Below, in pieces: positions 18,301 through 34,765 of a DNA stretch of 64,000 nt (positions within the stretch are counted from its first letter, which is position 1; each line of letters opens with the position of its first letter). This stretch comes from Chrysomallon squamiferum (lineage: Eukaryota > Animalia > Mollusca). The notes under the pieces are model-generated. The model was not told the DNA's origin and did not search any database. It saw nothing but the letters and a program-made list of their open reading frames with translations. The stretch covers positions 5,828,001-5,892,000 of the forward strand of contig CM022671.1 in assembly GCA_012295275.1 (NCBI GenBank). The letters run 5' to 3'. The position numbers were made by a program, and so were the translations under genes.

Positions 18301-19704
18301 CTAGAATTACAAAATAATTTAAATACACTATGGCATGATCAATGTGTGTGTGTGTGCATACATACACAAAATACCAATATATTGATGTAGCATTTTAAAT
18401 AAAAAACATAAAACCAGTAGTTGTATAATAATAAAAACTTACAGTAAATGTACGAGCACTATTTCCAAGAGTTCTAATCATTCTGCTAGCCCAAGTCAAA
18501 GCATCCTTGATTCTGTTGTTAGCCAAGTAACATTCTATCAGACCTGAAACAAGAATAAACTTTGTTTTTAATCCCAGAATGCACCGATTCATTTTCTGTC
18601 ACAAGCTATTTAACTTACTCTACACGAGAAAACATCAGTTAATTTTCTCTCACAACTGTCCCCTGTTACTGAGTGTAAAACACTTCTTTAAGAGACCACC
18701 CCTAAAATACATTAAGTTTACTTTCTCTTATAACTATCCATACATTTAATAATTCAGACAAAATAATACTTTAGAGAAAATCCTTTATTTTAGCTGCACA
18801 GAACATTGTAAACTTTTTTTTGATTGTTGTTCATAAGGAAAGGTTAGTATATATGGGAAAGTTCTGAAAGAGTATGTGTGTGTTAAATGTGATAAAATAA
18901 ACACAAATAAAAAACACAAATTTAAAAAAGCTGGGGTAAACAACTGTGATAAAAATAAACAAGAATAAAAAAGCTCAAATTTAAAAAGATTAAAAAAGAT
19001 TGTTAAAAACTATAATAAAATAAAAAATGTTTTTAAAAATTCATGTTTTTTTTTTTAAAGTGTTAAAAACTGATAAAATAAACAAAAGTAAAACATCACA
19101 AATTTAAAAAAAAATAGGTTTAAAAACCGTGAAAAAAATAAACAAGAATAAAAAAGCTCAAATTAAAAAAAAAAGATTCTCAAAAACTATGAAAAATAAA
19201 TTTAAAAAATAAAACTTGTTAAAATCTGATAGAAAAAACAACAAACAAGAACCAAAAAATCTGAAATTTTAAAAAAAATATGTTAATAATCCACTGAGGC
19301 TGCTCACCGCTGTATGCCTCAAACCGATGTGGAGCCACTCTGACAGCCTCCATGAAGTGCAGCGTGGCATCGTGAAGTTTTTTCAAATCTAACAACGACG
19401 AAGCTTTCAGCAGCAGAGCCTGGATAGACCGAGGATCGAGAGTGTATGCCTGGAAAACATAAACATTAATTTAAAAAACACCTGTGTGAAATGTTAATTT
19501 ATAAAAACATCTGCTAAATAAGTAATTTATAAACACATCTGTTAAATATTTAATTTATAAATACATCTACTACATGAGTAATATGCCATTTTCATACAAA
19601 GCATAAGGTGCTGTGATTTTTCAAAGACTTTGCTTTCTGAATTTTTAAAAACATTAATTTATTTATTTTATTTTATTTTTCTAATTACATCTCTCTATCT
19701 ATCA

Positions 19705-29172: not shown

Positions 29173-30008
29173 ATGAGTATTATTTGTACATATTAATGTT
29201 TAAATAAAAATCTATATTTCTTTTTTAAACCTGCCTTGGTTTGTTTCTAATTGTTAACAAGCTGTGAAAACAAAATATTAATCTTAGGTTGTGTTGACAT
29301 TTACTCTTTTAAATGCTTTAGTTAATTTAATTATGATACAAACATGAACAACATTCAAATATTTAAAACAAAAAACTATAATGTTTATGGCTGTTTTGTA
29401 ACTGAATTAAAAAGTGTAATAGATTAATTAACAGGTAGTATAATTTAATCTAATCAAATATATTGTTTTCAACAGTATGCGTTTTGAAATGTTACCAGTG
29501 ATTTGGTTTTTTATACTTAATCTATGAGTATTTGAAAATCAGTATATATATCACATACTCCTTAAACTGTGTCACCATTGCACACAAACAGTTTTAAAAT
29601 CAACTAAGATTGTTCATGTACACTCTATCCAGTTGTCTGCACATATGGTGTGTGTGTGTGTGTGTTGTTTACTTTATATATTTGATTATCTATTTTAGAA
29701 AATCGGCTCATTTTGAGCAGTGGAAGATATTTGTCAACAAAAATAAATATTCAGCAGTAGTTACATACAACCAGCCATAACTATCAGATGCAAATCAATT
29801 TAAGAGGACATGATCCCATCCATTCTCACTTTAAAGTAATCACACTTTCATCAGACATTTTAAAATACTATCCTGTTTGCATAATTTTTCACAATATCAG
29901 TCTGCACTTTTTATGCTAGTAAACTTCCTACTGTCAGAAATGCCTGAAATATACCCTCTTTGAATCCACACCTGATCAAGTGTAGCTGCTGAAACACAAA
30001 AAACACTG

Positions 30009-32614
30009 CTAAATGAGTGATCTATGCAACACAGTTATTCCTCTTGATTTAGCCAGACGTGCCAACCTCTCCTCATTTTCAGCAGAAACTGGAACATGGT
30101 ACATGTCTACATGTTTCAGAGATGGACACGCTTCAACAAATTCCACAATGGCTGTGTCAGAAATTCCTTTGATCATGCTGATGTTGAGATGTTTCAAGTT
30201 TGTACAGTTTTTTCTCACAGCTCGCAGACTTCGGTCTGTCAGATACTGACACAAAGAGATGTTAAGTGATTCAAGATGTTTTAATTTCTGCAATAAAATG
30301 AAGTAATATTTTGTATAGAATTGATCCAACTTTTTAAAGGATATTTTTTTCTTTCTCTTAACTGGATGCATGTAATAAATAATTATTATTGTAAAAAAAA
30401 ATTTATAAGAAATAAATTGACTTAAATTTTTTCTTTTTATTATTACATTATTAAAATTTTAATTATTATTGTTATATTTAATATTAATAAAATATTTGTA
30501 ATTATTTGAATTTATCAGCAGTAATTTAGCCACAGTCTTTTTGATATTATAAACATTATTTTTATTAAATTAACCTTCAAAATTTGTTCCATTAGATCAT
30601 TAATCAAGATATAACCACAACTGGTTATTATTATTATTATTATCAGTGCAACTACTACTATTACTTTTACTCCAACTATACTACCATTTTTTCTACTACC
30701 TCAATACTACTATTTCTACTACCTCTATACTACTACTACTGTTTCTACTACCACTATATTTTTCTACTATTTTTACTACAACTATTTCTAGAACTAATAT
30801 TGTTCAATAATTAACCTTCAAAAGTTGTTCCATCAAGTTATCAGTCATGATATAGCCACAGTCTCTCAGACTGAGACTGCGAATGTTTGGACACTGAGAA
30901 CAGAGAGTTTTGAGAATGTTTTCTGTCAGATACAACCCCTCCAAGTCTACGTGCTCCAGGGTGGGGACAAACAAATGTTTTAAAATACTGTTGTTTAGTT
31001 TCTTCTGTCGCTTTCAGTCGATGGATCATTGAACTGTTTTCATATTTAAAAACAAAATTTAAAAAATTAAATAATACAGACATTTATCAGCCTACAAGTA
31101 TGAAAGAAATAAAAATATTTAACAAAAAAAAAAAAAAAAAAAAAAAAAAATGTCCTTCTGATAAACATGTTGATAGATATACATACATACATACATACAC
31201 AGACAGACTACAAAAAAAAAAAAAAAATAATAATAATAATAAAAGTCATTCTGATAAACACGTAGATAACCAGACAGACTACAAATGGAAAGACCTTTGT
31301 AAGTACATATGCATATAAAAATAATGTCTTTATTTTTCACTTTCTATTCACCAAAATTAGTTTTTAAATTTTTGACATATAAATGAGTAATTCTGATAAA
31401 TGTGGGAACAATTGTAGAAGAAAGAAGTATTAAAAAGATCATTATCATTATTTTTCAGAAAATTAAACATTACAACTTTAGAAGTGCCTGCAACCTGAGA
31501 TATAGCAAAACCACATGAAATTTTAGGACCTATATTTTAGAGAATAATTATAAATAAACATTTTGAGAACAAATGTTTGAAGTAAGTGAAATCATTGTGA
31601 ATGGAGCAGTATTAAGTCTAACAAATTGATCTCACATCAACATTTAACAACATTTTTGCTTTCTCTTACCTGATGATAAACTCATCTGGAAAGTCGTGAA
31701 GATCGTAATCTTGTAGATTTCTGATGACAGTTGTAATGCAGATTTCAAACAAAGTGTAAACCTTGCTGTCCTCATGGCATGGATTCTAAAACAAACAGCA
31801 TCTCAGTGACATAACTGTTACAGTTCTTTTAAAGTATAATGCTTTACACCTACAGCACAATATGAACTCTGATTCAGTGAGTTTCAGATTTATTAACATA
31901 ACTAATGTTAAAATTAATATATCCTTATCATCCCAAATGCAAGAAAAATAAATGTATTTATTGAAAAAACAGTCACGATTCCCTGACCCTCCCTATAACT
32001 CAATATTGGCTCTTTCATTTTAGTATCAATTATTAATTTTTCATTTTTTAAAATTTTTATTATTATTATTTTATTTTTTTGCCTTGTGATCTCAAAATAC
32101 AACTGATAAGTGAATAAGAAAATGATGAATTCTAATTACACATACCACATCAGATATTAAAATCTTTTATTACAAATACCTTTTCAAACTTCCTTCCAAA
32201 AGCTGCTCTCACTAAAGTTTTTTCATTTACTTTCTTTATTTCAAAACGTTTTGTGTTTCGACCAGACAGGGATGTTTCAAGTTCTTCAATAATTTCTTGT
32301 CTGCTGTGACTTTTCAGAAGAGGTACTGATATCAGCTCATCTAGTGACATGAAACCTGAAAATAAATAAATAAATTATTTTTATAATTATGTCATGTGAG
32401 ACAGAAAATAACAGCTATATTATATATATATTAATATCATTCCTTAACAAATTTCACAAATGTCTTCATCACAAAAATGTGTGTGTGTACCTGAATCATC
32501 CACATGGAGACCTTCCTTCAGTGCACCATATCGTAAAATATAACAGAGACGTTTTGACAAACGTCCATCTTGATAATGAAAAACTGTTTTGTTACAATTA
32601 TTTACCACTTCCAT
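30009..32614 (-). CDS. Fusion protein: Tpt1/KptA-like N-terminal RNA lobe + BC-box/cullin-box-like segment + AMN1-like LRRs; 5 exons, ~303 aa if a 1-nt insertion in exon 4 is removed
   Basis: Exons 32614-32491 (ATG with upstream in-frame stop), 32355-32180, 31785-31670, 31033-30816, 30287-30009 (TAG), all GT-AG. Translation includes DGRLSKRLCYILRYGALKEGLHVDDSGFMSLDEL...TKRFEIK...LVRAAFG, VYTLFEICITTV...FPDEFII and LRRs (IRSLSLRDCGYIMTD, LESLNISLCQYLTD, LKHLNISMIKGISD). Confidence 0.85.
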
Positions 32615-34402
32615 TTCTTCTTTTATTTATTTCATTTTAAAATAATTGTAAAGTTTCGGAAGTACATATATACTTTGCAAATGCTTTAAATTAAATATAT
32701 AACTGAAATGTCGTTATACGTTGAAAACAATTCATTGATTTCTCGGTGAAGTAAAATTTTTCGTCATTTTACATTTCTTCTTCTTGTGCAATTCTTATTC
32801 TGAATTCTCGAGAGCCAAACCATATTTTATTTTTAAAATGTTGGCAGTCGCCGCAATGTCACGATTGATGTAAAGTTAAATATAAAATTCTGATGTGCTG
32901 ATACTATTTAAAATAGAATCTTAGTAACAGAAAGCGAACAACAAATAAATAAATAATGTAACATATAATCTGTTGACATATCCAATCCATGATATCGTTC
33001 GATGTTTACCGGTTATTTATGGTCAGATAACTCTAGTTGACTAATTTGTGCATTTGTTCCTGTTGCCTTGCGTTTCTTTGCGATTTCCTCCCCGTTTCTG
33101 TGTGAGCCAACCAAAACGCATTGTTAAGTGACCATTTATTACATGTTTCTATTTTTATGCATATTAAATAAATAAATAATAATAGACAATGGTCAGGTTG
33201 GGTCTTCTACAAGGCGATGCATTTTCTTAATTTTCATACCAAATTAATAAAAATCCGTTACATCTTTGAATTTGAAATACATATTTTAGGATATATCGCA
33301 GATAGTTATCTTAATTTTTGAAAAATCGCCGACAGTAAGATTTTACCGACAATATGATCGCAGCGTCGGAAATATTTTGCGATATCACGTGTTGCTATAA
33401 CTACCCTGATAACTGCCATCATATTGTTTTAATTTTATTTATATATAATTTTTTTTTGTTTTTATTTTTTTGAGCAAATGAGGTTGATCAAAGAGCATTT
33501 AAAGAGTTTTTAGAAGTAACTCTGGCATTTTAGGGGGAACTATAAAGGTAGATGCTGAATGATCGTTATCACTCAGAATAGACAAAGAAATTAAAAATGG
33601 CGGCCTCCACGGAACAAACCTAGTAGCTGATAAAAACAAAGATTTCTTTCTGTTATTTTTATCTGCTTATTTCATAATTTCGCTGTTTAAGTAGGACTAT
33701 ATTTGTCTTTGTATTAATTTCTTACATGACCACAATTAGGAATCAGATTACTGTTCTACTCCAAATTTAAGACAAGTTTATATTTGAAAAACTTTTTATT
33801 CTTATCAGAAAATGCGAGATATTGGAGGATAATGAAGATTTTATATTCATTCGGAGCTGGTAGAAGACCCAGCCTGACTTCCCTTTCTTCATAGGACCTC
33901 GCTTTTCTTCAACTCCATCGACTAAAGCACACTTGTAGAAACGTCACTGGGAATGATATAGATAAAATTAAAATATTTCCGCACAGCAAATTCCATTGTA
34001 TGTAAAATGTTTTACAACGTATTTACAAGGACTTAGTCAAGATAGAATCTGAACATGAAAGAAAGAAAATTTACACAGTAGATGTTAATCTTAATTACTG
34101 TGGTGAAGTTCCAGCTGAGCTGGGACTTTGGTTTAGCCAACCTGTCAGATGAAATCAGTATCTAGGGTTGTTGTTAGTGATCATCCTAGACTAAAGGTTA
34201 AAACAGGTGTAATCACTTGATCAGAAACCGCAAGGACTTCTCTCATCAGGTGATAAGCTGCAGTTTCTTCATTGTAATGCACACTTTCTTCTTGATACGA
34301 GTATAGTTTGTGAACAAGTTTTCCAGGATATCACTAATGATATTGGACACGCACTGGGTTTGAGAAGCTGGCGACAAAATTAAAAAACTGGAACTTAAAA
34401 AA

Positions 34403-34765
34403 GGGATTATTTTCTTCAAGGTAACTGAACCTTACTGGCATCTCATTTCTAGCCACACTCACTATTCAGACTTTTTCAACTTTGTACAGATGTACTACTC
34501 CAGTTTCAAGGAATGGTCTAATTATGCTACTCCTATGCTAGACAAGAATGCTGGCCACACTTTCACTGAATTCCAGACAGAACTGAGCAAGGTGAACAAA
34601 CATCTCTACCTACCAGCCTCAACCCAGAATACAAAACACTTCTAAAAGAAACTCCCTTTAGAAACGCACTTAACTGACTTTCAACCTCATGGAAGATTGT
34701 TTAGCGTACAAAATCCAGAACTCCGTGAAAAGATGCAGCATTGCAGACTCACAAATCTTATTTAA
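34403..34765 (+). mobile_element. Decayed DNA-transposon (transposase-like) coding relic
   Basis: Intronless, frame-broken translation GIIFFKVTEPYWHLI...FKEWSNYATPML and HLTDFQPHGRLF...PELREKMQHCRLTNLI resembles invertebrate DDE-transposase-like sequences from memory. It has no start or splice context, and the surrounding 33.5-35.4 kb is non-simple, TE-like sequence. Confidence 0.5.

Follow-up and report, generated by a model that had tools for sequence, protein, structure and literature searches.

The minus strand of a 64,000-nucleotide stretch of the genome of the mollusc Chrysomallon squamiferum (GenBank assembly GCA_012295275.1, contig CM022671.1, positions 5,828,001 to 5,892,000; here, the window, with coordinates counted from its first letter) carries, from position 32614 to position 30009, a five-exon gene for a protein of 303 residues in which the RNA-binding lobe of the 2'-phosphotransferase Tpt1/KptA/TRPT1 is followed by a helix resembling an Elongin BC box and by five leucine-rich repeats (LRRs), and from which the NAD+ lobe of the enzyme is missing. 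Our analysis shows that this is a real, spliced gene that is widely conserved among invertebrates. We tentatively propose, as a joint reading of both halves of the protein, that it may serve an Elongin BC-cullin ubiquitin ligase as its substrate receptor, aimed by a phosphorylated mark on RNA; we regard this as plausible, short of probable.

A sequence-only reading of the window had proposed that the N-terminus of the protein is the Tpt1/KptA RNA lobe and that the NAD+ lobe has been replaced, and both proposals are borne out. The Pfam family PTS_2-RNA (PF01885) is matched by exon 1 over positions 3 to 27 of 177 (E = 0.0032) and by exon 2 over positions 30 to 82 (E = 0.047), in either case below the curated cut-off for the single exon; in relatives in which the exons are joined, the match is above the cut-off in 10 of the 11 scanned and always lies within positions 2 to 85. 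A sequence search of the Protein Data Bank (PDB) with exon 1 (E ≤ 10) gave three matches, all of them to TRPT1 and weak (E = 0.23 to 0.28), and all 30 ESM Atlas clusters matched by exon 2 are PTS_2-RNA (best score, 0.91); when exon 2 was compared with the PDB, protein A repeats alone came up, through a helical match due to chance. The oyster ortholog P0058 was modeled with AlphaFold2, and the model (from an alignment of 42 rows; predicted local distance difference test score [pLDDT], 86.9; predicted template modeling score [pTM], 0.65) superposes on residues 19 to 104 of mouse TRPT1 (7yw2_A) with a Z score of 13.6 and a root mean square deviation (rmsd) of 1.6 Å over 84 residues, and on an archaeal-type Tpt1 with a Z score of 12.2. 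The lobe corresponds to about residues 17 to 100 of the window protein, and the RNA lobe of mouse TRPT1 comprises residues 19 to 97 (PMC10415124). By sequence it is closest to yeast, mouse, and human Tpt1 (E = 2e-9 to 9e-7), and bacterial and archaeal Tpt1 sequences match it with E = 7e-6 and weaker. No PTS_2-RNA match in the 11 relatives extends past position 85 of 177, the HGT sequence motif is found neither in any of 39 aligned relatives nor in the window protein, and LRRs stand in the place of the NAD+ lobe in the model. Because the NAD+ lobe is missing, phosphate transfer in cis is ruled out, and an active phosphotransferase was rejected as an explanation of the gene. Separately, in three ESM Atlas clusters of 52 to 81 amino acids, the members of which are mostly bacterial, the Tpt1 RNA lobe stands by itself; these are probably fragments.

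In Tpt1 the RNA lobe contacts the 2'-phosphate junction through Ser6, Lys7, Tyr11, Arg14, His15, Lys60, Arg62, and Tyr74, together with Arg133 of the NAD+ lobe (PMC12170183); a second study gives the same contact set and an Arg-His-Arg-Arg tetrad (PMC6333775). We transferred these positions through Tpt1-family alignments and counted residues in up to 39 aligned relatives. Exon 1 (32614-32491, minus strand; residues 1 to 42) holds the start codon, a short variable N-terminus, and the first helix of the RNA lobe, with the pocket residues Ser20, Lys21, Tyr25, Arg28, and Tyr29 (His in Tpt1 enzymes). Exon 2 (32355-32180, minus strand; residues 42 to 100) encodes the remaining RNA lobe, with Arg78, Arg91, and Phe94 and the family-specific residues Ser70, Ser72, Arg74, and Arg96. 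Both phosphate-binding arginines are near-invariant (Arg28 in 39/39 and Arg78 in 38/39 relatives), Lys21 is kept in 36 and Tyr25 in all of 38, the residue at position 94 is always aromatic (27 Tyr and 12 Phe among 39), and Lys or Arg directly precedes Arg78 in 28 of 39. The tetrad accordingly reads Arg (39/39), Tyr in place of His (39/39; Tyr29 in the window protein), and Arg (38/39), its fourth Arg being gone with the NAD+ lobe. New conserved residues have appeared as well: Arg22 (33/38), Arg74 (32/39), Arg96 (34/39), Ser70, Ser72, Glu99, and His104. The most conserved stretch of the whole protein is the start of the lobe, where the mean share of the commonest residue is 0.74, versus 0.41 to 0.68 elsewhere. 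Since the pocket residues are conserved and the lobe start is the most conserved stretch, the phosphate-and-base pocket is, by residue conservation, strongly selected, and it carries a fixed change by which the family can be recognized. On balance, this pattern speaks in favor of a lobe that holds a phosphorylated nucleotide in RNA, which we consider somewhat probable.

Exon 3 (31785-31670, minus strand; residues 101 to 139), which is covered by an RNA contig (run X8, record 17), encodes a conserved linker, the BC-box-like helix, and the start of a cullin-box-like segment. Given the BC-box consensus (S,T,P)Lxxx(C,S,A)xxx-hydrophobic (PMC4878042), residues 111 to 120 (31726..31755, minus strand) are the sole strict match in the window protein, so that the BC-box part of the signature seen in the sequence-only reading stands. 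At this one aligned site, 35 of 40 family rows match the core of the motif, 11 match it strictly, and all 40 have a small residue at the Cys position (residue 116); Leu112 is invariant (39/39). The chance of a match per position in shuffled family proteins is 0.0009 for the strict motif and 0.006 for the core. The cullin-box-like segment (31670..31692, minus strand; residues 132 to 141, extending into exon 4) consists of a hydrophobic-Pro pair and then an amphipathic helix; Asp134 is kept in 38/39 relatives, a spacing one residue longer than that of the Cul2 box is seen in 29/34, and the region superposes on the N-terminus of ZYG11B. The Cul5 box, the consensus of which includes LP-hydrophobic-P (PMC13061254) and which would denote a SOCS-box receptor of the CUL5 cullin-RING ligase (CRL5) type, was not found: alignment columns 125 to 146 contain one Pro (133) and no LP-x-P.

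The rest of the protein is encoded by exon 4 (31033-30816, minus strand; residues 139 to 211), which supplies two capping helices as well as LRRs 1 and 2, both of the cysteine type, and by exon 5 (30287-30009, minus strand; residues 212 to 303 and the stop codon), with three more LRRs and a capping helix. Pfam LRR matches are weak in exon 4, and in exon 5 LRR_6 is matched above its cut-off (E = 1.9e-06). Thr175, Gly198, Tyr199, and Asp203, all in the first two LRRs, are invariant in 31/31 relatives, and these four positions, which include the Gly-Tyr pair, are a candidate binding surface or lobe-docking site. When the whole oyster model was compared with known folds, the top match was Rad7 in its complex with Elc1 (Z = 17.7; rmsd, 2.5; 167 residues), and ZYG11B was found with Z = 13.0, its residue 10 being aligned to model residue 114. 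We also modeled the box region by itself (residues 113 to 223, 111 residues; pLDDT, 86.3). Among 48,161 chains, only three matched this sub-model at Z ≥ 5, namely, ZYG11B (7.0), Rad7 (5.7), and again ZYG11B (5.6); the best of these has an rmsd of 2.8 over 103 residues and is collinear from ZYG11B residue 13. The N-terminus (residues 8 to 91) of APPBP2, a receptor of the CUL2 ligases (CRL2), was also matched (Z = 4.2). The three matches are Elongin C partners, as the hypothesis had predicted before the search. A sequence taken as Elongin C was confirmed as such by comparison with solved chains (E = 6e-60), and a control profile comparison of the lobe with Elongin C was empty. Motif and fold together make it likely that the protein binds Elongin C, and we hold this prediction with good confidence.

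The window DNA is of the AT-rich animal type (GC content, 22 to 36%). The five exons have GT-AG ends and phases 1, 0, 2, and 0; as assembled, the frame meets a stop at codon 203, and with one T removed from the three-T run at 31012-31014 in exon 4, which has one base too many, it is open for 303 codons. Nine public sequencing runs match part of the stretch, and four of them, all from one study, were aligned over exons 3 to 5 as Logan contigs rather than as reads (two RNA libraries, one probably of DNA, and one of unknown kind). The extra T is missing from all four; the window therefore most likely carries an assembly error. The 542-nucleotide contig of RNA run X8 that covers exon 3 continues, in order, through exon 4 (also covered by contigs of RNA run X9) and the start of exon 5, and the first 30 letters of its 179-letter loose end repeat exactly the sequence at 32182-32211, where exon 2 has its 3' end. 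The joint between exons 4 and 5, which skips 528 nucleotides, is present in each RNA run and absent from the remaining two runs. The joint between exons 1 and 2 is placed by phase and by gap-free alignment to relatives, the alignment of runs having covered exons 3 to 5. Downstream, a probable 3' untranslated region (29828..30008, minus strand) runs unspliced from the stop codon and is crossed by RNA contigs X9 record 21 (29828-30287) and X8 record 15 (29875-30289), which do not show the true transcript end. Five phase-compatible exons giving about 303 residues after a 1-nucleotide correction, the motifs quoted from exons 1 to 5, and an RNA that joins exons 2 and 3 had all been either described or asked for beforehand, and each was found, the motifs standing in the translation as described.

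Two other accounts of the locus were rejected. A pseudogene is at odds with the absence of the extra base from all four runs and with the coding differences between runs and window, of which, among the 12 listed, 10 are silent and 2 change Val to Ile. Two separate genes are at odds with the one contig that joins exons 2 to 5 and with full-length relatives that are single proteins. Within intron 4, positions 30568-30619 hold a 52-nucleotide copy, 83% identical, of the 3' end of exon 4 with its donor site; neither RNA run shows use of it.

Exon 2 finds 30 relatives at E ≤ 0.001 among 1.84 billion representative sequences, and with a four-sequence profile the same fusion, which the sequence-only reading had suggested looking for across invertebrates, is present in 32 of 34 matches. 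The 24 named carriers come from eight phyla or subphyla of animals. They comprise molluscs (gastropods, bivalves, and chitons), the annelid Capitella, the brachiopod Lingula, bdelloid rotifers, and, on the deuterostome side, echinoderms (sea urchins among them), hemichordates, and amphioxus. Another search added Lottia, Plakobranchus, and Sinanodonta. The window protein aligns with its best relative (P0051) over 288 columns without gaps at 52.8% identity. We built a midpoint-rooted tree of 32 rows; of the 39 aligned relatives, it contains the 31 that are nearly full length and omits 8 that are partial. In this tree the window protein is joined by Lottia and Elysia (96/95), all within a clade of molluscs (99/96); the remaining animal groups come out as expected, with a weak deepest split (75/50). 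Because the tree follows the animal groups, it suggests one ortholog group inherited from the protostome-deuterostome ancestor. The intron positions likewise look shared: of 20 single-exon relatives, 18 have Val directly after the exon 2 boundary, the residue that results when a GT donor is read through, and five partial relatives stop at the exon 3 boundary.

No vertebrate, arthropod, nematode, or cnidarian name occurs among the 34 matches, which were drawn from the best 7,999 candidates (134 to 585 amino acids) and include eight family matches without a name; the gene may have been lost from vertebrates. Family-specific patterns gave 43 matches in viral contigs and 40 in prokaryote genomes, none of which was confirmed as a relative. 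Exon 2 had no match among 14 longer candidate proteins, and exon 5 retrieved 19 generic LRR proteins, none of the family. The ESM Atlas contains the architecture as an unnamed cluster of 52 members. Databases call the relatives uncharacterized, 2'-phosphotransferase, or F-box protein; UniRef applies the label 2'-phosphotransferase to at least 12 of the 32 family matches, though they have no NAD+ lobe, and three are named F-box proteins, so that a correction of these entries is one practical result of our analysis. Regarding variation in the family, the window protein has no counterpart of the conserved tail of about 30 residues of bivalve, chiton, and rotifer orthologs; the tail is also missing in deuterostome and Lingula orthologs, and the RNA contigs run unspliced past the window stop. 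P0029, a 487-residue protein of a Branchiostoma hybrid, has several tandem copies of the helix plus first LRR, either a real expansion or an artifact of assembly or gene model.

The proposed mechanism has four steps. (i) The first 85 or so residues have the Tpt1 RNA-lobe fold with no NAD+ lobe and are catalytically dead. (ii) The pocket of Lys21, Tyr25, Arg28, Arg78, and Tyr/Phe94, to judge from its conserved residues, may still hold the phosphate of a nucleotide; the likeliest candidates are a 2'-phosphate inside broken or freshly ligated RNA and a 2'-, 3'-, or 5'-phosphate at its end, and the family-specific arginines 22, 74, and 96 would replace contacts lost with the NAD+ lobe. (iii) Residues 111 to 163 are predicted to bind Elongin C as ZYG11B and Rad7 do, and a cullin would be recruited, with CUL2 as a first guess. 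(iv) The LRR face may grip a protein on the marked RNA, which would be ubiquitylated and removed or remodeled; this is the weakest step. By analogy, the protein might be an RNA counterpart of the damage sensor DDB2, one that reads 2'-phosphate scars or phosphorylated breaks, produced by RNA ligation of the yeast type or by damage to RNA, and ubiquitylates proteins or ribosomes there; we rate this more specific idea as rather doubtful. Such a sensor would date back to the last ancestor shared by molluscs and amphioxus, or further, and would apparently have been lost from vertebrates. Amphioxus, which carries the gene, has yeast-type ligation that leaves 2'-phosphates, and mammals are most probably without it (PMC4090602, PMC10680797, PMC3400036, PMC5434554). 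The ligation pathway and the gene in this one species are a hint at an RNA ligand, and the correspondence may extend to molluscs and rotifers.

Several observations weigh against the proposal that the protein is an RNA-aimed Elongin BC-cullin receptor. On the side of the lobe, all relatives have Tyr in place of the tetrad His, the residue that holds the junction 3'-phosphate; at the site of the base-contacting Ser (Ser20 in the window protein), 21 of 38 have Gly and 13 have Ser; the Lys two positions before Arg78 is variable; and two phosphate contacts, Arg121 (PMC6333775) and Arg133 (PMC12170183), sit in the missing lobe. Because of these changes and of the contacts gone with the NAD+ lobe, the ligand may differ or may have been lost. 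On the side of the adaptor, the strict BC box is confined to the 11 of 40 rows given above, since 25 of 39 have Arg at position 111, and each shuffled family protein contains by chance about 2 core and 0.3 strict matches, so that it is the fixed position of the motif, rather than the motif by itself, that argues for a BC box. The exact Cul2-box spacing (hydrophobic-Pxx-hydrophobic-xxx-hydrophobic) occurs in 1 of 34, and this half of the signature claimed in the sequence-only reading did not hold in its exact form. In the whole-model search, FBXL17 (Z = 16.6) comes close behind Rad7, the alignment of which begins after the BC-box helix. The sub-model Z scores of 5.6 to 7.0 are modest, lying under 8 in a range that the tool calls common, and Foldseek returned nothing for the sub-model at E ≤ 0.001. 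By sequence, the LRRs are best matched to the F-box proteins FBXL2, FBXL17, and SKP2, the matches covering only the repeats of those proteins; for the F-box itself, there is no Pfam match at E ≤ 0.1 in 11 relatives and none precomputed for 32. Finally, because the oyster model has a pTM of 0.65 and a low-confidence linker, the lobe and the LRRs need not face one target.

Some of these points would be expected if the ligand were not RNA. The protein might be an Elongin BC-cullin receptor, supported by the same adaptor evidence, whose old RNA pocket now reads a protein (a phosphodegron, for instance, or canonical TRPT1 or an RNA ligase as a partner) with no RNA involved. The His-to-Tyr change fixed in 39/39 and the new conserved Ser70, Ser72, Arg74, Glu99, and His104 around the pocket are residue changes that a changed ligand would give, and a pocket of arginines suits any phosphate; however, the base-stacking and ribose residues (Lys7, Tyr11, and Arg62 in PMC12170183), which a peptide would not need, are kept, and the lobe is net positive (17 Lys plus Arg, 12 Asp plus Glu), which leaves this explanation rather unlikely. 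It also seems improbable to us that the lobe gates the receptor by binding a metabolite, such as NADP+, 2',5'-ADP, pAp, or the ADP-ribose-1''-phosphate of canonical Tpt1, and so switches substrate binding by the LRRs. TIR1 and COI1, which are ligand-gated LRR receptors, are among the LRR matches. In addition, Tpt1 RNA lobes have been crystallized with 2',5'-ADP, NADP+, and 5'-AMP (PMC12170183) and with the pAp end of coenzyme A (PMC6333775). However, those crystal ligands sat in a two-lobed enzyme, and the TIR1 and COI1 matches reflect generic LRR similarity.

A protein with no ligase role would also fit the scarcity of the strict BC box (11/40) and of the exact Cul2 box (1/34), the sub-model Z scores under 8 with no Foldseek match at E ≤ 0.001, and the invariant Leu, since any cap should have such a residue in its buried helix. 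In that case the helix would do no more than cap the LRR solenoid at its N-terminal end, and the protein would either be a scaffold that binds RNA or shield 2'-phosphates as a dominant-negative competitor of TRPT1. Such a cap would not account for the sub-model search, in which all three chains that reach Z ≥ 5 belong to Elongin C partners, as predicted beforehand, and APPBP2 has Z = 4.2, nor for the small residue kept four positions after Leu112 in 40/40, and we judge a role outside ubiquitin ligases to be quite unlikely. A split enzyme, in which the RNA lobe works in trans with a protein recruited by the LRRs that supplies an NAD+ lobe or ADP-ribosyltransferase, so that phosphate transfer or RNA ADP-ribosylation persists, is very unlikely. 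Two of the three tetrad residues of the RNA lobe are kept, and in one bacterial enzyme, step 2 loses no more than a factor of three in rate when the His is changed (PMC6333775). Against this, the open reading frame lists and Pfam scans contain no nearby gene for an NAD+ lobe (a spliced one could be missed), and the linker runs straight into the BC-box-like helix. We know of no stand-alone partner.

Two other features of the window were noted. At 19222-19470 (minus strand), an exon of the tetratricopeptide repeat type has a weak Pfam match to ANAPC3 (E = 0.0065) and resembles a subunit of the anaphase-promoting complex. At 33600-34645 (plus strand) lies a probable, divergently transcribed neighbor, in which the frame 34213-34380 weakly matches Peptidase_M54 (E = 0.018).

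The architecture had been put forward as one of which no description was known, and none was found in the full-text literature by a search that lay mostly outside subscription papers; the available portions of PMC10415124, PMC12810181, PMC9503650, PMC10809525, and PMC13247085 do not mention it. BC-box LRR receptors are already known; to our knowledge, one with an enzyme-derived RNA-phosphate pocket appears to be new. Mouse Trpt1 can be deleted without effect, and full yeast-type ligation is not known in animal cells (PMC4090602, PMC13247085). Why animals keep Tpt1-type proteins is an open question on which this family bears. A conserved, noncatalytic, phosphate-reading lobe suggests that many invertebrates may read such a mark as a signal that is wired to a predicted ubiquitin ligase. 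If this is true, the substrate pocket of a repair enzyme would have been turned into the trigger of a degradation pathway, and 2'-phosphate marks would have a role in animals.

Among known systems, Tpt1/KptA/TRPT1 shares with the family the winged-helix RNA lobe, two tetrad arginines, and most RNA-lobe contacts, whereas the family is without the NAD+ lobe, the HGT motif, and the fourth tetrad Arg, has Tyr for His, and has the BC-box-like helix and LRRs instead. The fission yeast Tpt1-Yae1 fusion likewise joins a Tpt1 part to an unrelated C-terminal domain; there, however, the whole active Tpt1 is kept and the parts work unlinked, whereas here half of the enzyme is gone (PMC12810181). AMN1, to which the protein had been likened from its sequence, is listed in a 2026 E3 compendium with LRRs, a predicted BC/Cul box, and ELOB interaction and is rated there as inconclusive as a CRL2/5 receptor candidate (PMC13061254). 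AMN1 clusters are indeed the next nearest in the ESM Atlas after the family's own, with a score of 0.85 that lies below the bar of 0.9 and makes the likeness a lead only; the BC-box-plus-LRR part is similar in size, but AMN1, compared here by ESM Atlas score and compendium listing, has no Tpt1 lobe. In the CRL2 receptors ZYG11B and ZER1, a BC-box helix, a cullin-box-like segment, and LRRs follow one another as they do here, with the collinear structural match reaching ZYG11B residues 13 to 131 (Z = 7.0). ZYG11B, however, begins with its BC box and has about 750 amino acids, whereas the family has an enzyme-derived lobe in front, ends after five LRRs, and has cullin-box spacing one residue over the consensus. 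Yeast Rad7, an Elongin C partner used in the repair of nucleic acid damage, gives the best whole-model fold, and its sequence match begins further toward the N-terminus than those of the other LRR proteins among the top matches; it has more LRRs and no Tpt1 lobe and acts on DNA together with Rad16. With no homology claimed, the working analogy is that of ligase receptors that read lesions, among them DDB2, a WD40-domain protein that recognizes UV lesions in DNA and works with DDB1-CUL4 (CRL4): a cullin receptor that reads a nucleic acid mark and ubiquitylates the proteins near it.

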